Of a DNA stretch of 64,000 bases, positions 4,827 through 17,345 are shown one piece after another (position 1 is the stretch's first letter; every line of letters begins with the position of its first letter). Made by a program: the position numbers and the translations under genes. The notes under the pieces were generated by a model. The model was given only the letters and a program-made list of their open reading frames with translations. It did no database searches and was not told the DNA's origin. This DNA is from an uncultured Gammaproteobacteria bacterium (GTDB taxonomy: Bacteria; Patescibacteriota; Microgenomatia; Levybacterales; UBA12049), in contig CAZWXQ010000003.1 in the NCBI GenBank assembly GCA_964637955.1, positions 159,154 to 223,153 of the forward strand, written 5' to 3'.

Positions 4827-5897
4827 ATGAGAAAAGCTGATTTTGCTCTCCTTTTTGCTGTTTTTAGTTTAACTGCTTTTGGTTTATTTATGATTTATGA
4901 TGCCTCAAGCTATGTGGCGTTTAGGGATTTTGGTGATAAGTATAGTTATTTTAAAAGCCAAACTACCTGGGCAATTTTAGGATTTATTGCTCTTGGTATA
5001 ATATCTTTTTTTGATTATAAAAAATATTATAATTTAGCGCTGCCTATTCTTGTTGCTTCAATAATATTACTTGTGGTGGTACTTATTCCTGGTGTGGGTA
5101 TTTCTGCTCTTGGTGCAAGAAGGTGGATAAATTTAGGATTCTTTGTGCTTCAGCCATCAGAATTCGTTAAGCTTGCGCTTATAATTTATTTGTCAGCATG
5201 GTTTTCTACAAAAGAAAAAGGAAGATTTATGGCATTCTTGCTTCTAATTGGATTAGTTCTTGGTCTCGTAATGCTTCAGCCCGATATGGGAACGGCTATT
5301 ATAATTCTCGGTCTTTCTGTGATTATTTATTTTCTGTCTGGGGGAAATGTACTACATCTTTTGGCACTTGCGCCTGTTGTCGGTATTGCAGGGATTGCGC
5401 TAATAATACTTGAGCCATATAGACTTGCTCGTCTTACGACATTTTTAAATCCTGAGCAAAATGTTTTGGGTTCCTCATATCATCTTCGCCAAATTTTGAT
5501 CGCGCTTGGATCAGGAGGATTGTTTGGTGTTGGATTTGGGAATTCTCTTCAAAAATATGCATATTTACCTGAGGCAACTACTGACTCAATTTTTGCTATT
5601 ATGGCTGAGGAGATAGGATTTTTTGGTGTAATTATATTTGTCGGAGTTGTGCTGTTTGTCGTATACAGAGGATTTCATATAGCAATGCACGCTCCAGATG
5701 CATTTGGAAAATTGCTAGCAGCTGGGATTACATCATTTATTGCAATTCAAGCTGTAGTAAACCTTAGTGCTCAAACTGCGCTTATGCCTTTAACAGGCGT
5801 TCCGTTGCCTTTTATTTCTTATGGAGGCTCTGCTTTAATTATTAATCTTGTTTCAATTGGGATTCTTCTTAATATTTCAAGACAAAGTAAGGTTTGA
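4827..5897 (+). CDS. ftsW: SEDS-family peptidoglycan glycosyltransferase FtsW
   Basis: Polytopic SEDS protein with the C-terminal PFISYGGSALI motif. It sits between mraY and murG. Confidence 0.8.
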   Translation: MRKADFALLFAVFSLTAFGLFMIYDASSYVAFRDFGDKYSYFKSQTTWAILGFIALGIISFFDYKKYYNLALPILVASIILLVVVLIPGVGISALGARRWINLGFFVLQPSEFVKLALIIYLSAWFSTKEKGRFMAFLLLIGLVLGLVMLQPDMGTAIIILGLSVIIYFLSGGNVLHLLALAPVVGIAGIALIILEPYRLARLTTFLNPEQNVLGSSYHLRQILIALGSGGLFGVGFGNSLQKYAYLPEATTDSIFAIMAEEIGFFGVIIFVGVVLFVVYRGFHIAMHAPDAFGKLLAAGITSFIAIQAVVNLSAQTALMPLTGVPLPFISYGGSALIINLVSIGILLNISRQSKV

Positions 5898-8769: not shown

Positions 8770-9957
8770 ATGCTCATAAAGCCTCAAACAACTAATTTCG
8801 CAAAAATTCGAGTTATGGGTATAGGTGGTGGAGGAGGAAATGCTCTAAACTCCATGATCTCCCAGTCTTCAATTCAAGGCGTAGACTTCATAGCTGTTAA
8901 TACTGACGCCCAGGCACTTCTTCTTAATCAAGCAGCCACAAAAGTTCAGATTGGAGAAGACTATACGAAAGGACTTGGTTCTGGAGGAAATCCAGAAGTG
9001 GGAGGAAATGCTGCGGAAGAATCCTATGAAAAGCTAAAAGACATTCTTCAAGGGACTGATATGGTGTTTTTAACCGCTGGAATGGGTGGGGGGACAGGAA
9101 CCGGGGCAACTCCGGTAATCGCACGCGCAGCAAAAGAAGTGGGGGCGCTTACCGTAGCAGTCGTTACTAAGCCATTTACTTTTGAAGGGACTCGCAGAAT
9201 GGTGTCTGCCGAAGAAGGAATAGAGCTTCTTAAAGATAAAGTCGATACTTTGATTACTATACCAAACCAACGAATTCTTGATGTTGTGGATAAAAAATTG
9301 TCCCTTCTTGAAGCATTTAAGGTAGCAGATTCAGTTCTTACACAGGGAGTGCAGGGAATTTCTGATCTTATTACTATGCCAGGACTTATTAACGTCGATT
9401 TCGCTGATGTAAGAACCATCATGCAAAATGCAGGCTCATCTCTTATGGGTATTGGAACAGGAGTTGGTGAAAATAGAGCACAAGCAGCGGCTCGTTCAGC
9501 TATTGCGTCACCACTTCTCGAGATCACTATGGATGGAGCGCGTGGAGTTCTATTTAATGTGATAGGAGGTCCAGATCTTACTATGAATGAGGTAGATGAA
9601 GCTGCAAAGATTATAGCTTCGGCAGCCGATAGTGACGCAAACATCATTTTTGGAGCTACTATTGATGAGTCTATGCGTGATCAAATGAAAATTACTGTTA
9701 TAGCAACAGGATTTGATAGCGCTCGTCAAACTCTTCGTGAATTTGTTACTCCAGCTTCAGCAGCTTCTTATGCAGGTGGTGGGAATTCATTTGGTCAATC
9801 TATAAATCAGCAAAATGATGATGATCATTCAAGTAATAATCAAAATATTTCCAATCAAAATATAAATACTCCAAATAATATGCCAGGCTCAGCTCCAGCG
9901 GAAGAGCCCGATGAAGAGGTCTGGGACATTCCCGCATTCCTTCGACAAAAGAATTAA
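8770..9957 (+). CDS. ftsZ: Cell division GTPase FtsZ
   Basis: Contains the tubulin signature [13 protein letters not shown] and [15 protein letters not shown]. The C-terminal peptide [10 protein letters not shown] is the conserved FtsA/ZipA-binding tail. Confidence 0.95.
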
Positions 9958-9958
9958 C

Positions 9959-10438
9959 ATGATTACGGAAACAGAGAGCACACCGCGAGAGCCATTATAT
10001 CTTTCTCCGGAAAAATTCGAAGAATCATTTAAAAATGTGCCGCGTCTCGCAGTTAATCTCATTGTAAGAGATGAAAGGGGAGGAGTTTTGTTAGTAAAAA
10101 GAAATATTCCTCCTCAGGAGGGGGTCTGGCATATGCCGGGAAGATTTTTACTTAAAAATGAAACTATTGAAGCATGTAGATCACGAATTGCAAGAAAAGA
10201 ACTAGGCATTGAATTACCTCTAGGAGAGGAAATCACACTTTTAGGTGCTTTTGAAGATTTAGATGGAGACTCTCGAGGACACGTAATTGATTTAGCTTTC
10301 GGAATCAAACTAAATGATGGTGTAAAATTGCGACAAACCGATGAAAATTCAGAAGCAAGATTTTTTAGTAGATTGCCAGGCAATATTGGTTTTAACCATA
10401 GAGACACGCTCCAATTATTGGGTTTTCAAGATGAATAA
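9959..10438 (+). CDS. NUDIX-family hydrolase (degenerate Nudix box)
   Basis: GRFLLKNETIEACRSRIARKELGIEL resembles the Nudix motif G-x5-E-x7-REUxEExGU. The ATG at 9959 lies 1 nt after the ftsZ stop. The track ORF start at 9911 would overlap ftsZ. Confidence 0.5.
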   Translation: MITETESTPREPLYLSPEKFEESFKNVPRLAVNLIVRDERGGVLLVKRNIPPQEGVWHMPGRFLLKNETIEACRSRIARKELGIELPLGEEITLLGAFEDLDGDSRGHVIDLAFGIKLNDGVKLRQTDENSEARFFSRLPGNIGFNHRDTLQLLGFQDE

Positions 10439-10441
10439 GTT

Positions 10442-10477
10442 TGGGACATTCCCGCCTTCCTAAGACAGAAGAACTAA
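10442..10477 (+). repeat. Second copy of the last 11 codons plus stop of ftsZ ([11 protein letters not shown]), downstream of and in frame with the NUDIX gene
   Basis: 10442-10477 tgggacattcccgccttcctaagacagaagaactaa compared with 9922-9957 tgggacattcccgcattccttcgacaaaagaattaa shows 6 differences. All six are synonymous. Confidence 0.85.
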
Positions 10478-10530
10478 GTTCGAAAATAATCCTCATGTAT
10501 TAATTGTTTCGGTTTTGCTAATGTAGAATC

Positions 10531-12084
10531 ATGGAGTATATTTATCTGTTTAAAAATAAATATTATTTACTAACTTTAATTTTTGTTATTTCATTTTCAG
10601 TACACTTAATTGGGCTTAACAAAATAGGAAGGACTTGGGATGAAGGTTTTAAAGTAGATTCTGGATATATGGCGTTGGGAAATATTGCTTCTCGAGATTT
10701 TTCAGTAAACTCGTGGTATTTGGTTCCTGAGCATCCAATGGTAGGAAAGTATGCATATGGTTTGCTTATGGGCCCTCAGACCATAAGAATCGATGATGGA
10801 AATGGACATTTTGCAAATATATCTGATTTAGATATGGTTGCAATAACTACTGGTAACTATATTAAAACTCAGTTAGGAAATAAGCTTTATATGGTTTCCT
10901 ATGATTACACGATGGCAAGGGTTTTATCGGCTCTTTTCAATAGTCTTGCAATTACTTTTACTGTGTTAATTGCGCTAAATTTCCTAAGTGCATTTTGGTC
11001 ACTACTGGCTGGAATTTTTATGCTTCTTATTCCCAGATTTGTCGTTATGGGGCAGCTCGTTACTTTTGAGTCTTTGACAATCTTTTTATTTACCCTAACC
11101 CTATTAGTATTTTATAAATTATTAAATAAACCAAAAGACATAAAACTTTACCCAATCATGGGAATACTATGTGGTTTGTTATTTTGGACGAGATATAACA
11201 ACTACTTTGTATTCGTATTTTTATTTGGATGGATGATTTTGGACTATTATTTTAAGAGAAATAAAGAAATTTTTAATTATCGTCTTATTATAATTCCTAT
11301 AATTGCATTTTTTTTGGGAATTGTAATTTGGCCACTTGTTTGGAATGATTTCCCTAAATATCTTTTGGAATCCGTTTTATTTCATAAAGATAGACTAATT
11401 CCTTCATTTTATTATTTCCATAGGCTTATTATTACTACTCCTATTCCCATAATAATCGGAGTTGGTTTTGGATTGTTTTTTGCTCTAAGAGAAAAGAAAT
11501 ATTGGAATTATTTTTTTGCATTTTGGTTCATTTTTGTTTTAATTTATCACATGATTTTGGGTGTTCCAGGTGGAGGAACTAGATTTATTTTTATAATTTA
11601 TCCTGCAGTTGGAATAATGTGTGCATTTGGATATTTTAAGCTTCTTAAGAAAAAATGGATTTATGCACTTATTCCGATACTTGCGTTTATGATAATTGAT
11701 ATGGTTTCTTATTTTCCTTACTATCTCGACTATTACAATATGGCAATTGGAGGAGTAAAAGGGGCAAAGAAATTGCAGTATGAAGTTTCTTGGTGGGGCG
11801 AAGGTCAAAGAGGAGTAGGGAAATATATAAATAATAACGTGCCTTCTGGCGCAAGTGTTGGATATTATGTAGTTCCTAGGTATGTTGCACCTGCAACGAG
11901 AACTGATTTAAATAATTTGGGGTTTGTAGATGATACGGGAGCGGTTGCTGATTATGTAATGTTAAGTAGTGGAAGAGTACCTGAGTTTGAAAAGAAATAT
12001 AATGGGAAGTATGAAGTTATTTATTCAGAAAAAGTTAGAGGAGAAAATTTGGTTTTGCTTATGAAAAAGAAAAATACCAAATAA
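10531..12084 (+). CDS. GT-C fold polytopic glycosyltransferase (PMT_2/ArnT-like)
   Basis: 517 aa with more than 10 TM segments. The first extracytoplasmic loop carries IGRTWDEGF, a DE motif typical of GT39/GT83. Confidence 0.5.
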   Translation: MEYIYLFKNKYYLLTLIFVISFSVHLIGLNKIGRTWDEGFKVDSGYMALGNIASRDFSVNSWYLVPEHPMVGKYAYGLLMGPQTIRIDDGNGHFANISDLDMVAITTGNYIKTQLGNKLYMVSYDYTMARVLSALFNSLAITFTVLIALNFLSAFWSLLAGIFMLLIPRFVVMGQLVTFESLTIFLFTLTLLVFYKLLNKPKDIKLYPIMGILCGLLFWTRYNNYFVFVFLFGWMILDYYFKRNKEIFNYRLIIIPIIAFFLGIVIWPLVWNDFPKYLLESVLFHKDRLIPSFYYFHRLIITTPIPIIIGVGFGLFFALREKKYWNYFFAFWFIFVLIYHMILGVPGGGTRFIFIIYPAVGIMCAFGYFKLLKKKWIYALIPILAFMIIDMVSYFPYYLDYYNMAIGGVKGAKKLQYEVSWWGEGQRGVGKYINNNVPSGASVGYYVVPRYVAPATRTDLNNLGFVDDTGAVADYVMLSSGRVPEFEKKYNGKYEVIYSEKVRGENLVLLMKKKNTK

Positions 12085-12087
12085 TAT

Positions 12088-13341
12088 TTATCTGCGATAG
12101 TTAAATATTAGGTAATAGATTAGATAAGCTGATGCTCCAACAGCTTGGCCAATTAATATTCCCCAGCCAATACCAACAAGTCCAAATGAGGAAAGTAAAT
12201 ATGTACTTATTATTATGGCTGATGCTCCAATAAAATTTAAAATAATAAGTGCATTTATTTTATGTCTTATTCTGAGGATAGAATTTGTAAATAAAGATAC
12301 TGGAACGAAGAGTGCTGAAATTGAAATTATTTGTAAAAATTTAAAAGCATCTTCTTCAAAATTTTTTCCAAAAAAATGAAGAATATAATTACCAAAAAAG
12401 AAAATTATAATTACACTTGGAATAAGTAGTAAGAAAGTTATTTTTGAAGCTTTTAAAATATGCTTTTTAAGTTCTGTTTCGTCATGAGATCCTTCGGTAA
12501 GTAATGACTGTGAAACGGATGAGGGTATAGTGAGTAAAAGTGTGTAGATCATAATATCTATATAATAGTATGCTGCATAAGTTGCCCCAATAGAATTAAC
12601 AATTAGAATTGGAAGAATTAAAAGTGGCGTAGATGATAAAAGGTTGGCAATGTAATTTCCGCTTGAAAATTTGCCCATGCTTTTAATTAATGGTATATTA
12701 ACACCTAAGATTAAATGAAATTTGAATTTATAAATTAATATTCCAAGACCGAAGAAAAAGCTAATTGCCATCGCAAGTGAAAAAGCTGAGAAAAGTCCAT
12801 ATGCGCCAAATGCGGAAAATATAAATAGAAATAATATTTTTAAAGTACTTAGTATTAAGCTTTTTGAAAGAACGTTTCCTGCGTCTCTGTACGCAGTAAA
12901 TATATAATCTAAAAGACTATTTAAAGATATTACGATGGTAAAGAAGATGAAAGTTGATATGTAGATTAAATTGTTATTGAGAAAAGATAGTTTTGGAGAA
13001 AATATATTTATACCTATTAAAAATATAATACATACGATTAGACTAACAAATGTTATAAGAATTGAAGATGATGAAATCATTTCATTTTTGACTTCAGATT
13101 TGGGCAAAAATCTATTTAAGCTAATATTTAATCCAAGCATGCAAAAGCCGGATATTAAGGATGAAACGGATAATAATGTAGTTGCTACGCCAATTTGATC
13201 AGTCGTAAAGTTTTTTGCTGCTATAACCCAGAAGAAAAATCCAAAACCAGCCATTACACCTGAGCTTGCTATTAAATATATAGAATTTCTGTATAAATGA
13301 TCAGATCTGAAATGATTTATGATCGTCTTGAATCTACCCAT
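12088..13341 (-). CDS. Wzx-like polysaccharide/oligosaccharide flippase (MOP superfamily)
   Basis: 417 aa with about 12 TM. The N-terminus NSIYLIASSGVMAGFGFFFWVIAAKNFTTDQIGV is typical of the polysaccharide biosynthesis protein family. Confidence 0.65.
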   Translation of the reverse strand: MGRFKTIINHFRSDHLYRNSIYLIASSGVMAGFGFFFWVIAAKNFTTDQIGVATTLLSVSSLISGFCMLGLNISLNRFLPKSEVKNEMISSSSILITFVSLIVCIIFLIGINIFSPKLSFLNNNLIYISTFIFFTIVISLNSLLDYIFTAYRDAGNVLSKSLILSTLKILFLFIFSAFGAYGLFSAFSLAMAISFFFGLGILIYKFKFHLILGVNIPLIKSMGKFSSGNYIANLLSSTPLLILPILIVNSIGATYAAYYYIDIMIYTLLLTIPSSVSQSLLTEGSHDETELKKHILKASKITFLLLIPSVIIIFFFGNYILHFFGKNFEEDAFKFLQIISISALFVPVSLFTNSILRIRHKINALIILNFIGASAIIISTYLLSSFGLVGIGWGILIGQAVGASAYLIYYLIFNYRR

Positions 13342-13436
13342 ACATTCATTATATATGTTAATTGCCCAACATCTATAGAAGTAATTATTTTTGTCCTCGA
13401 GGTAAATTTTATATAGGATATATCAGCTTCAGTATA

Positions 13437-13472
13437 GATATATATCAATAAACATCAGTTTAAGATTGATAA
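13437..13472. promoter_or_regulatory. Imperfect inverted repeat ATATCAAT-N15-ATTGATAA upstream of the HTH gene promoter; related to the perfect inverted repeat at 45508-45540
   Basis: ATCAAT at 13444-13449 and ATTGAT at 13465-13470. The flanking TATAT is shared with the 45508 site. Confidence 0.4.
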
Positions 13473-13485
13473 CATTGCTTTAGCA

Positions 13486-13514
13486 TTGACATTATAGGCC
13501 ATTTATGATATATA
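13486..13514 (+). promoter_or_regulatory. Sigma70-like promoter: TTGACA (13486-13491), 17-nt spacer, TATATA (13509-13514)
   Basis: The -35 is a consensus hexamer. The predicted transcription start near 13521 gives a 12-14 nt leader to the ATG at 13535. Confidence 0.45.
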
Positions 13515-13534
13515 TGGCTATTCATATCTCAATT

Positions 13535-13741
13535 ATGATTGATATAAGTAAAACTAACTTCCTTACAGTTGCAGAGGTTTCAGCACTACTGCGATTAAGT
13601 GAGCTTACTATTTATAAATACCTTAAAGAAGGTAAGCTTGAAGCAGTCGAATTTGGCGGTCATTATCGCATTTCAGAATCTTCATTATTTAAATTTATTG
13701 AAAAGCATAAAGTAAATTCAGTTAAGGAGGAAAATGAATAA
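13535..13741 (+). CDS. Small helix-turn-helix DNA-binding protein (excisionase/MerR-like HTH_17 type)
   Basis: FLTVAEVSALLRLSELTIYKYLKEGKLEAVEFGGHYRI is the canonical helix-turn-helix of the excisionase-family DNA-binding domain. The track start at 13505 falls inside the predicted promoter, so I prefer the ATG at 13535. Its 3' end carries the AAGGAGG Shine-Dalgarno site of the next gene. Confidence 0.55.
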   Translation: MIDISKTNFLTVAEVSALLRLSELTIYKYLKEGKLEAVEFGGHYRISESSLFKFIEKHKVNSVKEENE

Positions 13742-16700
13742 CGAATCTACTGGGTTGAGTATTATCGTTCCTACATATAATGAAGAAGCTAATATTAAAT
13801 TATTAGTTGAAAGAATTCACGCTGCTTTATCTGATGCAAAAATAAATTATGAAATAATTTTTGTTGATGATCACTCTACAGACCAGACTCAAAATGTGAT
13901 CAGTAATCTAGCCATTTTTTTTCCAATCATTTCAACTACTAAGGTAGGCAAAAAAGGTAAAGCATATTCAATATTAGAAGGTGCTAAATTTGCTCAGTTT
14001 GATAATTTAGCCATGATTGACGCAGATCTTCAATATCCGCCAGAAGCTCTTCCGAAAATGGTAAACATGCTTAAGTATTCTGATTTGGTAATTTCAAATA
14101 GAAAAACATATAAAGATACAAAACTTAGAAAAGTTTTAAGTCGTACATTCAAGTTTATGTTTGGAAAGGTTTTATTTGGACTTAATTATGATATTCAATC
14201 AGGACTTAAAGTGTTTACAAGAGAAGTTTTTGAAACATTAAAGTATATGCCTTCATCTTCTTGGACATTTGATCTTGAGTTTTTACATAGGGCGAAACAG
14301 GCAGGATTTCATATGAGCAGCTATGATATTACTTTCACCAAAAGAGCAAAAGGAAATTCAAAAATGGGGATCATGAAGCAAGTTATAGAAATTGGATCTA
14401 ATGCAATAAGAGTCAAAGCAAAAAGAATTAGACCTGTTCATATTGCTCCAAAAAGTTTAGATTCTATGAAAGGTGCTGGAATAGGTTATAAAAAAAGAAA
14501 GTATATTACTCATACTACTATTCCACATCACTTATCAGCTTTAACTACCGTAACTAAATTACAAAAATTTATCGTAATTATGATTGTTGGAATTTTAATT
14601 GTTGGAATACTGACAACGCCGATGCTAACTTTAAAGTTGTTAATTGGAGTTCTAAGTTTTATATACCTGGCAGATGTATTATTTAATTTATTTTTAATTT
14701 CAAAAAGCTTAAATAGTCCTCAGGAAATTATATCTTCAAAAGATGAGATTGATTCAGTGAAGAATTCAGATTTGCCAATATATTCTATACTTTGTCCACT
14801 CTATAAAGAGGCTCAGATTATTCCGCAATTTTTAGAAGCTATTGAAAAAATTTCGTGGCCAAAAGATAAGCTTGATGTAATATTACTTTTGGAAGAAGAC
14901 GATAGGGTAACGATCGATGTTGCAGCAAGAATGGATTTACCTTCTTTTGTTAGAACAATTATTGTTCCACATTCAATTCCTAAAACAAAACCTAAGGCAT
15001 GTAACTATGGACTTGCATTTGCAAAAGGAGAGTATGTAGTTGTTTATGATGCAGAAGATATCCCAGATGTAGACCAATTAAAAAAAGCATTTCTTGGTTT
15101 TAAGAAAAGTTCAGAAAACGTAATATGTCTTCAAGCGAGACTTAATTATTACAATCCTCACCAGAATTTATTAACAAGATTTTTTACAGCAGAGTACTCA
15201 CTTTGGTTTGATGTAACGCTTCCTGGAATGGTGGCGATTGAAACTGCTTTGCCATTGGGTGGAACCAGTAATCATTTCAAAACAAAATACTTACAGTCTG
15301 TTCATGGATGGGATCCATTTAATGTGACTGAAGATGCCGATTTAGGAATCCGGCTTTTTAACCAAGGATATAAAACTGCAATGATTGATTCAACAACTCT
15401 TGAAGAAGCAAATAGTAATCTTAAAAATTGGTTTAGGCAAAGATCACGTTGGATAAAAGGGTATATGCAGACATATCTGGTGCATACGAGACGAAATGGT
15501 GTTTCAAGCAATAAGAAATCAAAACACTCTTTATATTTTCAATTAATAATTGGAGGAAAAATCGCTTTTGTTCTTATAAATCCTATTCTTTGGATTGCTA
15601 CATTTGCATATTTTGCACTTTATTCATATGTAGGGCCTAGTATAGAACAGCTATATCCCAATGTCATATTTTATATGGCTATATTTTCTCTCGTAGTTGG
15701 CAATTTCCTCTTCCTTTATTACTACATGATTGGACTTGCGAAGAAAGGACAATGGAGTCTTATTAAATATGTGTTATTAGTTCCTATTTATTGGTTAATG
15801 ATAAGTATTTCTGCATTCATCGCTTTGTATCAATTAATATTTAAACCTCACTACTGGGAAAAAACAGTTCATGGTTTACACTTGAAGAAAGATGAAGTTA
15901 AAGAAAAAGTAAACGTTGTGGAAGAGATCCCCGCATATGATGATATCTCAAAGAAAAGACTTAGATATATTAATATTAAGCAAATTGCTGCAGTTACTAT
16001 ATACTCATTAGGAATATTATTCATTTTTCAAGATAATATTTTATATGCTTCATTAGTTTTGTTAAGTTCATTCTTAATTTACGTCATCTATACTTTATTG
16101 TTTCCTCTTTTAGCAGATTTATTACGCTCTGTGTTTTCAAATTTAAGTGATTTACTTAGTATGTTTAAAAAATCAAATGAGGAAAGCAGTGGAATTAGGA
16201 TTTTAGTATTAAATTGGAGAGACAGTAAGCATAAATGGGCTGGTGGGGCAGAGGTATATGCACATGAGTTAGCTAAAAGATGGGTAAAGGATGGCAATAG
16301 TGTAACAATGTTTTCTGGAAATGATGGAAAGAATAAAAGTAATGAAACTATTGATGGCGTAAATATCATAAGGCATGGAGGTTTTTATACAGTCTATTTC
16401 TGGGCTTTTGCTTACTATGTAATTAAATTTCGCGGAAAATTTGACGTAATTATTGATACTGAGAATGGAATTCCATTCTTCTCGCCTTTATATTCTAGAA
16501 AGAAAAAATTTCTCTTGATTCACCATGTTCATCAGGAAGTATTTAGAAAAAGTTTAAGATGGCCATTTTCAGACCTAGCATTATTTTTAGAAGCAAAACT
16601 TATGCCGTTTGTTTATAGAAATGTTCAAGTAATCACAGTTTCTCCGTCATCAAAAAAAGAAATTTTAAAACATAAGCTGACTAAAAAAGATCCAATAGTC

Positions 16701-17345
16701 ATCTATAACGGTGTAAATCATGACATATTTAAGCCCGCTAAAAAAAGTCAAAAGCCAATGGTCATATATCTTGGTAGACTTCAGTACTATAAAAGTTTAC
16801 ATATTTTTATAGTAGCTGCAAAAAGAATACTTAAGAAAAATCCAAAAGTTCAGTTTGTTATCGCTGGCGAAGGTGAGGAAAAAAAGAAGCTAATGAATTT
16901 TGCTAAAAAATTGGAAATTTCTGATCAAGTTAATTTTTTAGGCAAAGTAACTGAAGAAGAAAAAGTAAAGATATTTCAAGAAGCATGGGTATTTGTTAAC
17001 CCTTCTTATATGGAGGGATGGGGAATTACTACGATTGAAGCAAACGCTTGTGGAGTCCCAGCTGTTGCTTCAAATGTAGCAGGATTAAAAGATGCTATTA
17101 AAAATAATGAAACGGGATTTTTGGTTGATTATAAAGACTATGACAGTTTCACAAAAAGTATATTAGCTTTAATCGATGATGAATCATTAAGAAAAAGAAT
17201 GTCAGAAAATGCATTAAATTGGTCAAAGAAATTTAGCTGGGATATTAGCGCTGAGTTGTTCCTTGAAGTTATTAAGATCTCATTACAAGAAGATGATTAC
17301 AAATCAGAATCTTATACAAATATATTTTTAATGCAAAAAAACTAA
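13734..17345 (+). CDS. Three-domain membrane glycosyltransferase: N-terminal DPM1/GtrB-like GT2, central processive GT2 synthase (PgaC/NodC/cellulose-synthase-like), C-terminal GT4
   Basis: Domain 1 (LSIIVPTYNEE..FVDDHSTDQT) is polyprenyl-phosphate sugar synthase-like. Domain 2 has YDAEDIPD, VTEDADLG (TED) and FRQRSRW (QxxRW) and is flanked by TM helices. Domain 3 (EGWGITTIEANACGVPAVAS..ETGFLV) has the GT4 E-x7-E signature. An AAGGAGG Shine-Dalgarno site lies 7 nt upstream. 1203 aa. Confidence 0.8.
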   Translation: MNNESTGLSIIVPTYNEEANIKLLVERIHAALSDAKINYEIIFVDDHSTDQTQNVISNLAIFFPIISTTKVGKKGKAYSILEGAKFAQFDNLAMIDADLQYPPEALPKMVNMLKYSDLVISNRKTYKDTKLRKVLSRTFKFMFGKVLFGLNYDIQSGLKVFTREVFETLKYMPSSSWTFDLEFLHRAKQAGFHMSSYDITFTKRAKGNSKMGIMKQVIEIGSNAIRVKAKRIRPVHIAPKSLDSMKGAGIGYKKRKYITHTTIPHHLSALTTVTKLQKFIVIMIVGILIVGILTTPMLTLKLLIGVLSFIYLADVLFNLFLISKSLNSPQEIISSKDEIDSVKNSDLPIYSILCPLYKEAQIIPQFLEAIEKISWPKDKLDVILLLEEDDRVTIDVAARMDLPSFVRTIIVPHSIPKTKPKACNYGLAFAKGEYVVVYDAEDIPDVDQLKKAFLGFKKSSENVICLQARLNYYNPHQNLLTRFFTAEYSLWFDVTLPGMVAIETALPLGGTSNHFKTKYLQSVHGWDPFNVTEDADLGIRLFNQGYKTAMIDSTTLEEANSNLKNWFRQRSRWIKGYMQTYLVHTRRNGVSSNKKSKHSLYFQLIIGGKIAFVLINPILWIATFAYFALYSYVGPSIEQLYPNVIFYMAIFSLVVGNFLFLYYYMIGLAKKGQWSLIKYVLLVPIYWLMISISAFIALYQLIFKPHYWEKTVHGLHLKKDEVKEKVNVVEEIPAYDDISKKRLRYINIKQIAAVTIYSLGILFIFQDNILYASLVLLSSFLIYVIYTLLFPLLADLLRSVFSNLSDLLSMFKKSNEESSGIRILVLNWRDSKHKWAGGAEVYAHELAKRWVKDGNSVTMFSGNDGKNKSNETIDGVNIIRHGGFYTVYFWAFAYYVIKFRGKFDVIIDTENGIPFFSPLYSRKKKFLLIHHVHQEVFRKSLRWPFSDLALFLEAKLMPFVYRNVQVITVSPSSKKEILKHKLTKKDPIVIYNGVNHDIFKPAKKSQKPMVIYLGRLQYYKSLHIFIVAAKRILKKNPKVQFVIAGEGEEKKKLMNFAKKLEISDQVNFLGKVTEEEKVKIFQEAWVFVNPSYMEGWGITTIEANACGVPAVASNVAGLKDAIKNNETGFLVDYKDYDSFTKSILALIDDESLRKRMSENALNWSKKFSWDISAELFLEVIKISLQEDDYKSESYTNIFLMQKN

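Follow-up and report, generated by a model that had tools for sequence, protein, structure and literature searches.

Some integrative elements insert at the 3' end of a host gene and bring a replacement end with them, as do phage 21 and e14 in icd of E. coli and many islands in tRNA and tmRNA genes. For the tips of Rhs proteins, a single crossover of a circular intermediate within the conserved core has been proposed, since the old tip is displaced rather than deleted and is left in a silent downstream position (Jackson et al. 2009, PMC2935791). For the displacement of type VI secretion (T6SS) effectors the proposed route is homology-facilitated illegitimate recombination (Kirchberger et al. 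2017, PMC5361080), a process for which that paper points to work on bacteria capable of natural transformation (de Vries and Wackernagel 2002; Prudhomme et al. 2002, both as cited in PMC5361080). In this article, we focus on the 3' end of ftsZ in a stretch of 64,000 nucleotides (contig CAZWXQ010000003.1), referred to as a whole as the window, from a low-GC (32%) genome of the Patescibacteria (candidate phyla radiation, CPR), where a NUDIX hydrolase gene stands between two copies of the sequence encoding the FtsZ C-terminal tail. We consider it likely that the locus is a case of C-terminal displacement, in which the ftsZ 3' end of a relative, together with the NUDIX gene, recombined at the conserved tail and turned the resident tail into a silent relic.

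The gene ftsZ is the last member of a dcw-type cluster consisting of murG, a small open reading frame (ORF), ftsA and ftsZ. The nearest named source of a similar FtsZ is Candidatus Woesebacteria (79% identical), and the exact tail peptide of the window ends 65 of the 120 closest FtsZ homologues. From valine to stop, the end of ftsZ (copy 1) reads GTC TGG GAC ATT CCC GCA TTC CTT CGA CAA AAG AAT TAA, and the sequence at 10439-10477 (copy 2) reads GTT TGG GAC ATT CCC GCC TTC CTA AGA CAG AAG AAC TAA, which encodes the same peptide. The two copies differ at 6 of these 39 nt and all six differences are synonymous. A sequence-only reading of the window had reported six synonymous differences within a 36-nt repeat (9922-9957 and 10442-10477); the synonymy holds, but only five of the differences lie within the 36 nt, the sixth being in the preceding valine codon (GTC/GTT), and the 36 nt that do recur belong to a direct repeat that reaches further upstream and measures 48 nt (40 of 48 identical). 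The same reading had placed copy 2 directly after the NUDIX stop codon and in the NUDIX frame, which is confirmed in the sequence. The 5' part of the repeat is GATGAA in both copies, followed by GAG (glutamate) in copy 1 and by TAA in copy 2, i.e., the NUDIX stop codon falls within the repeat at the place of a glutamate codon. A block of 14 nt, TGGGACATTCCCGC, is identical between the copies, an identity that is also demanded by the codons. When a 20-nt tail pattern was searched with at most 3 mismatches, it was found at two places in the 64 kb, namely the two copies, against an expectation of 0.

That the repeat could be an artefact of assembly, as the sequence-only reading had considered, is ruled out because two contigs, assembled from the separate sequencing runs SRR14271336 and SRR14271332, match the window at 100% identity over 9.3 and 3.1 kb, both copies and the TAA included. 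In simulation, 6 random substitutions in 39 nt were all synonymous in about 9e-5 of the runs. The two copies therefore acquired their differences while the peptide was under selection, and the question is where and when this selection acted. At copy 2 itself, the predicted RNA fold of 10425-10535 is no better than that of shuffled sequences (z = 0.83), no Rfam family matches, and promoter- or terminator-like sites show no meaningful enrichment.

The NUDIX gene had been taken to begin at 9911, but that ATG is internal to ftsZ. The gene is likely to start with the ATG at 9959, one base past the ftsZ stop (TAAcATG), in agreement with the 159-aa database protein P0001 and with the N-termini of homologues. 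NUDIX is the only ORF in the 520 bp between the copies. Proteins of this family natively end in ..LGYKDE(E) followed by the stop, and we therefore read the GATGAA at the start of copy 2 as the NUDIX gene's own end, which shares microhomology with GAT GAA GAG of ftsZ. The best solved relative of the protein is the GDP-mannose mannosyl hydrolase (GDPMH) structure 1RYA (2e-11), and the score for the GDPMH subfamily model NCBIfam NF011963 is 51.7 bits, under the cut-off of 146; judged by its sequence, the protein is GDPMH-like only, short of the family threshold. Similarly close starts of the gene behind ftsZ (the cargo) are seen at two other loci, the ORF beginning 1-3 nt past the ftsZ stop in the window (9955-9961, TAAcATG), in L161 (6186-6194, TAGaatATG) and in L001 (56-64, TAAttcATG), and no Shine-Dalgarno sequence is obvious at any of the three starts. 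Such proximity suggests termination-reinitiation coupling to ftsZ. The NUDIX frame is also open upstream across the ftsZ tail from the ATG at 9911, in +1 relative to ftsZ. We considered a +1 frameshift at CCC-G that would fuse FtsZ to NUDIX and dropped it; the cargo frame is +1 in the window and 0 in L001 and L161, and the open frame is probably a chance occurrence.

The origin of the synonymous differences becomes apparent from comparison with seven genus-level relatives (FtsZ protein 89-97% identical, ftsZ nucleotides 75-85%). The tail peptide is kept in all seven, and their tails differ pairwise at 4-11 of 39 nt, always synonymously. Since the 6 of 39 nt that separate copy 1 from copy 2 are within this range between species, copy 2 resembles an ftsZ tail in use in a different member of the genus. 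We propose that the differences are synonymous throughout because they built up while the two copies served as working tails, each in an ftsZ allele of its own. The all-synonymous pattern, which the sequence-only reading had taken as a sign of long-term selection on the peptide encoded by copy 2, is thereby explained without translation of copy 2.

The same relatives support the view that the NUDIX gene was inserted. It is absent after ftsZ in the five relatives L159, L156, L160, L158 and L162 (FtsZ 90-97% identical), as well as in L157, L161, L010 and L011, and the region 3' of ftsZ differs in each of the seven genus-level relatives. Insertion with target duplication, one of the two origins suggested previously, is therefore upheld as to the insertion, but duplication by a copy-paste event is not, because copies made in place would start identical and then drift mostly non-synonymously, while the present copies differ like the alleles of two species. 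The nearest NUDIX homologue (66% identical) occurs in a more distant relative, L001, where it lies directly behind the ftsZ tail; no second tail is recognisable behind it. L001, which came from a protein lookup, is the sole other case of NUDIX beside ftsZ, there being none among the 66 metagenome NUDIX loci searched; other NUDIX homologues are found within glycosyltransferase clusters or after rho. Decayed second tails were suspected by eye in L001 and L160 and are not claimed, the similarity not being significant against shuffles or background, in a test that was weak and in which the end-gap setting misbehaved.

The downstream sequence indicates which of the two copies is the resident one. 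The 12-nt motif ATCCTCATGTAT, which we regard as an ancestral element of the ftsZ 3' untranslated region (UTR), is identical at 11 of 12 positions to what directly follows the ftsZ stop in L010 (ATCCTCATTTAT, 5087-5098) and at 9 of 12 to what directly follows the second copy in L157 (ATCCCCACATAT, 5230-5241). Because this motif follows copy 2 and not copy 1, copy 2 would be the resident end in its native context, and copy 1 with NUDIX the newcomer. The codons CTT CGA CAA AAG of copy 1 are closer to the tails of L156, L161 and L001, the last of these being the other ftsZ-NUDIX locus, than to copy 2. Copy 1, or at least its 3' half, probably came in with NUDIX. An association of CGA-CAA tail codons with cargo-bearing loci was also considered and proved inconsistent, AGA being used in L158, L011, L010 and L157. 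The consensus ATCC(T/C)CA(T/C)NTAT after the native ftsZ stop is kept among relatives 73-93% identical in FtsZ and may be a 3'-UTR or terminator-proximal element. As a separate observation on the flanks of ftsZ, ftsA is not found upstream in L156 (FtsZ 97% identical), where positions 1-620 hold a minus-strand 182-aa ORF without a family match instead, although the 50 nt proximal to the ftsZ promoter are conserved. This ftsZ thus has foreign DNA on both flanks.

The arrangement in the window is not an isolated case. We sought a second copy of the gene's own tail in 85 ftsZ loci and found six further cases, five in Patescibacteria and one in Chloroflexota, each with an ftsZ tail, an unrelated cargo gene or a short spacer, and a partial second tail (Table 1). 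The comparison of ftsZ 3' regions advised in the sequence-only reading thus yielded both the absence of NUDIX after ftsZ in close relatives and analogous second copies at six loci, some of them decayed. Counted by codon pairs between the first and the second copy, the synonymous and non-synonymous nucleotide differences are 6/0 in the window, 5/0 in L157, 2/0 in L011, about 6/0 plus one deleted codon in L161, 6/11 in L087 and 4/10 in L010. This gradient from intact to decayed second tails is as expected for unselected leftovers of varied age. In L157 and L160, the sequence found behind the L161 relic, TCAAAAAAGG, forms the 3' UTR after the ftsZ stop. The L087 locus shows that the displaced-tail layout is not limited to Patescibacteria; within L087 1149-1669, its second tail comprises about 20 codons, ending ..TDDLDIPAYLRRR and stop, and lies 520 nt past the ftsZ stop. 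In L019 (5129-5279) the repeated units match at 94% by Tandem Repeats Finder, each combining the last 10 ftsZ codons with a 30-nt spacer that contains a GGCGGG/CCCGCC inverted repeat.

Table 1. Features of the ftsZ-NUDIX region of the window and of the ftsZ loci compared with it. Coordinates refer to the window unless another locus is named; percentages for whole loci are FtsZ identities to the window.
Feature	Locus	Coordinates	Strand	Description
ftsZ	Window	8770-9957	+	395 aa, intact; ORF list; Pfam Tubulin and FtsZ_C
Copy 1 of 48-nt repeat	Window	9910-9957	+	FtsZ tail now in use
Copy 2 of 48-nt repeat	Window	10430-10477	+	GATGAA TAA, then tail codons; without own start codon
Identical 14-nt block TGGGACATTCCCGC	Window	9922-9935 and 10442-10455	+	Includes invariant CCC-GC; candidate crossover region
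NUDIX hydrolase, GDPMH-like	Window	9959-10438	+	159 aa; Pfam NUDIX 1e-13; stop TAA 10436-10438 inside copy 2
3'-UTR motif ATCCTCATGTAT	Window	10489-10500	+	11 nt past copy 2; putative ancestral ftsZ 3'-UTR motif
GT39/PMT_2-type membrane glycosyltransferase	Window	10531-12084	+	First gene of glycan-synthesis cluster; not part of repeat
Flippase-like gene	Window	12088-13341	-	Weak MatE/Polysacc_synt matches
1203-aa multi-glycosyltransferase	Window	13734-17345		GT2, GT2-like and GT4/GT1 domains fused
Tyrosine integrase	L156	1975-2979		In-frame stop; next to Phage_CRI (filamentous-phage-type) replication gene
Tyrosine integrase	L158	1932-3026		Among other small genes, including a 125-aa ORF that is TerS-like by eye, without Pfam match
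ftsZ with second tail	L161			89%; 131-aa ORF 3 nt past stop; relic SAFLRQ-N and stop, one codon deleted, then TCAAAAAAGG
ftsZ with second tail	L011			76%; secreted Lipoprotein_15 gene; second copy TAFLRQKN and stop; repeat continues 8 nt beyond stop
ftsZ with second tail	L157			93%; 29 nt, no cargo gene; second copy PAFLRQKN and stop, then ATCCCCACATAT
ftsZ with second tail	L010			73%; 350-aa ORF with own promoter and terminators; decayed relic EDIFFIFAFTKQRN and stop
ftsZ with second tail	L087 (Chloroflexota)			About 61%; minus-strand Phd/YefM antitoxin; second copy ..PPIVPTDDLDIPAYLRRR and stop, ..DLDIPAYLRRR and stop
ftsZ with second tail	L019 (Candidatus Buchananbacteria)			About 62%; no cargo; three tandem 60-nt units, each with PAFIRKKMK and stop

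The displacement that we favour would have proceeded as follows. NUDIX would already have stood directly behind ftsZ in a relative, as it does in L001, and donor DNA consisting of the tail-coding end of ftsZ and NUDIX would have recombined into the resident ftsZ at its tail-coding stretch. From then on FtsZ would be finished by the incoming tail, copy 1, and NUDIX, placed one base past the stop, would probably be translated by coupling to ftsZ, while the resident tail, copy 2, would have been shunted downstream with its old 3' UTR attached and would have lost its translation. The right-hand joint would lie at the microhomology GATGAA(T/G)A(A/G)G, where the native NUDIX end (..Q-D-E-stop) met the resident ..P-D-E-E-V. 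Most likely, either a small circular intermediate would have undergone a single crossover in the 14-nt identical block, or homologous recombination on one side would have been completed by a microhomology joint, and the event would be too recent for copy 2 to have decayed. Between the hypervariable FtsZ linker and the variable region downstream, no nucleotide stretch other than the ftsZ tail is conserved, which would make the tail a natural crossover point between diverged relatives. The repeat with its codon pattern, the lack of NUDIX in the closest relatives examined, the recurrence with other cargo and the decay of older relics are seen in the sequences; the donor, the route of recombination and the coupled expression are what we infer.

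Several points weigh against this displacement. We found neither a donor nor an empty site (ftsZ, tail, UTR and PMT_2 without NUDIX), in L163 the closest PMT_2 orthologue (73% identical) is not adjacent to ftsZ, and sliding identity against the seven relatives revealed no recombination breakpoint inside ftsZ. The homology available for a RecA crossover is very short (14 identical nt; 40 of 48 overall). In all seven relics the left boundary falls 24-55 nt from the stop, and four relics start exactly at (C)CCGC; random illegitimate joints would cluster less tightly, which hints that one step is site-specific. The searches required tail-like sequences, which biases the sample to intact relics, and the silence of copy 2 is something that we infer.

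The clustering of boundaries, all within 55 nt of the stop, also speaks for the alternative that a cassette or element was inserted site-specifically, which we regard as unlikely. In that case the tail-coding DNA of ftsZ, with its core near the invariant CCCGC, would be the attachment site of a recombinase, copies 1 and 2 would be attL and attR, and NUDIX with one tail copy would have entered as a small circle or would be the remnant of a larger integrated element. Two homologous tyrosine integrases (55% identical) indeed lie 135-340 nt from the ftsZ stop in L156 and L158 (Table 1). The tail proline codon is CCC in at least 13 of 13 copies in the clade (window 9931-9933 and 10451-10453; L001, L010, L011 and L156-L162), and CCC makes up about 8% of the proline codons in the window (3-22% in the loci), all other degenerate tail codons being variable; the invariant CCC may reflect a constraint at the nucleotide level. 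The cargo ORFs that begin 1-3 nt after the ftsZ stop in three of the loci would also fit the insertion of compact cassettes. However, NUDIX is alone between the copies and no recombinase gene is found there, homologues of the L156 and L158 integrases are absent from the 64-kb window and from the other relic-bearing loci, the two integrases are oppositely oriented, and no second tail was found on their far side within the contigs. Two degenerate tail patterns had 0 matches in the viral contigs of IMG/VR, where the L158 integrase has no relatives either, and a literature search for ftsZ as a bacterial attachment site (attB) gave nothing specific. The cargo-less spacers of 29-31 nt in L157 and L019 cannot have been circles, and copy 2 has no hairpin of the attC type by the fold score given above. 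A more elaborate version, in which the tail-coding end of ftsZ in these Patescibacteria, with a core at the invariant CCCGC, serves as an integron-like cassette site in an essential gene, with single promoterless genes entering and leaving as small circles, appears improbable. If it were true, excision between the copies would restore a perfect ftsZ, each copy would periodically be a working tail, and the spare one would be under real selection.

A different explanation, advanced in the sequence-only reading, places the selection on copy 2 where it now stands: the NUDIX protein would gain an FtsA-binding tail by readthrough of the TAA at 10436-10438, or would have done so until a very recent nonsense change, and would be recruited to the divisome. 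The position of copy 2 directly behind the NUDIX stop and in its frame is what this predicts, a change from GAA to TAA would take a single step, the relic of L011 is likewise in the frame of its cargo ORF, and six of six synonymous differences are hardly compatible with neutral drift in place (P about 9e-5). However, the same synonymous pattern separates functional tails of different species, and TAA is the ordinary and commonest stop here (35 of 50 long ORFs). Of 163 NUDIX homologues, 14 of them close and 149 of them representative, not one carries an FtsZ-like tail, the family natively ending in DE(E) and stop, and L001 has ftsZ-NUDIX without a recognisable second tail. The other loci speak against it as well, the cargo of L011 being a secreted lipoprotein, L157 having no cargo, the L161 relic being out of frame with its cargo ORF, and older relics decaying, visibly so in L010 and L161. 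Copy 2 has neither a start codon nor an RNA structure signal or Rfam match of its own. We therefore consider recruitment by readthrough or recent nonsense change to be very improbable. Duplication in place followed by drift of copy 2, whether as a transposon target site, by slippage or as a tandem duplication, is extremely improbable, for although the inserted gene is flanked by direct repeats and L019 exemplifies near-identical tandem amplification of the tail region, drift would yield six of six synonymous differences with P about 9e-5 (likewise L157 with 5/0 and L011 with 2/0), a 48-nt repeat with 8 differences far exceeds the target duplications of transposons, neither a transposase ORF nor terminal inverted repeats flank the insert, and the downstream contexts of the two copies differ.

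Downstream of NUDIX lies a glycan-synthesis cluster (10531-17345), which directly follows it and also includes an HTH_17 protein. In L002, a homologue of the NUDIX gene is found in a comparable cluster with PMT_2 and glycosyltransferase genes.

These results undercut the idea that a borrowed FtsZ tail brings a Nudix enzyme to the divisome, and they illustrate how a repeat can come to differ only synonymously although its second copy is under no selection. In streamlined Patescibacteria, and in at least one Chloroflexota genome, foreign genes have landed repeatedly at the FtsZ tail; genes inserted there would become co-expressed with ftsZ, provided that the coupling suggested by their close starts is real, and datable relics remain behind them. 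If the clustered junctions and the invariant CCC reflect a site-specific step, they would represent a cassette site of a new kind, located within an essential gene.

Among the described systems, integrative elements that insert at 3' ends share with the window the direct repeats that flank the insert and a copy in use that is partly element-derived, leaves the gene intact and differs synonymously from the displaced native copy. Unlike these elements, the window has an insert of 520 bp without an integrase, an excisionase or any other element gene, its att core is a candidate only, and integrases adjoin ftsZ only in relatives, where no second tail was detected. Integron cassettes resemble the inserts in being single promoterless ORFs of about 0.4-0.6 kb that are inserted compactly at one defined site behind upstream expression signals and are bounded by a short recombination sequence overlapping the stop codon. 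In contrast to integrons, the window contains no IntI, no attI or attC structure and no hairpin signal, and the presumed site is the coding sequence of an essential gene.

Homology-facilitated illegitimate recombination would account for homology on one side only (ftsZ) and for the other end being joined at a microhomology, 3-12 nt in this process and here GATGAA.A.G (8 of 10 nt). No left breakpoint is visible in ftsZ. This process usually deletes recipient DNA beyond the anchor rather than duplicating it, and it does not predict joints that are clustered in the last 55 nt of ftsZ.

The closest likeness is to C-terminal displacement in rhs, cdiA and T6SS effector genes, where an intact gene is followed by a downstream fragment that repeats a short conserved piece and carries the former 3' end. 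There, as proposed here, a new end is acquired laterally along with a gene that accompanies it, the former end is moved to a silent position, repeated events can build arrays, and the candidate routes are the same, i.e., a circular intermediate that undergoes a single crossover, or homology-facilitated illegitimate recombination. The differences concern what is exchanged and over what length of homology. The tips of rhs, cdiA and T6SS genes are variable toxin domains accompanied by immunity genes, and their displacement alters the protein, whereas in the window the gene is an essential housekeeping gene, one and the same peptide is encoded by both tips and nothing changes functionally except that a cargo gene is added; homology extends over tens of nucleotides in the window as opposed to hundreds. 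Seen alongside these systems, the locus is a recurrent ftsZ case of a known evolutionary process, of which the example in ftsZ is new.

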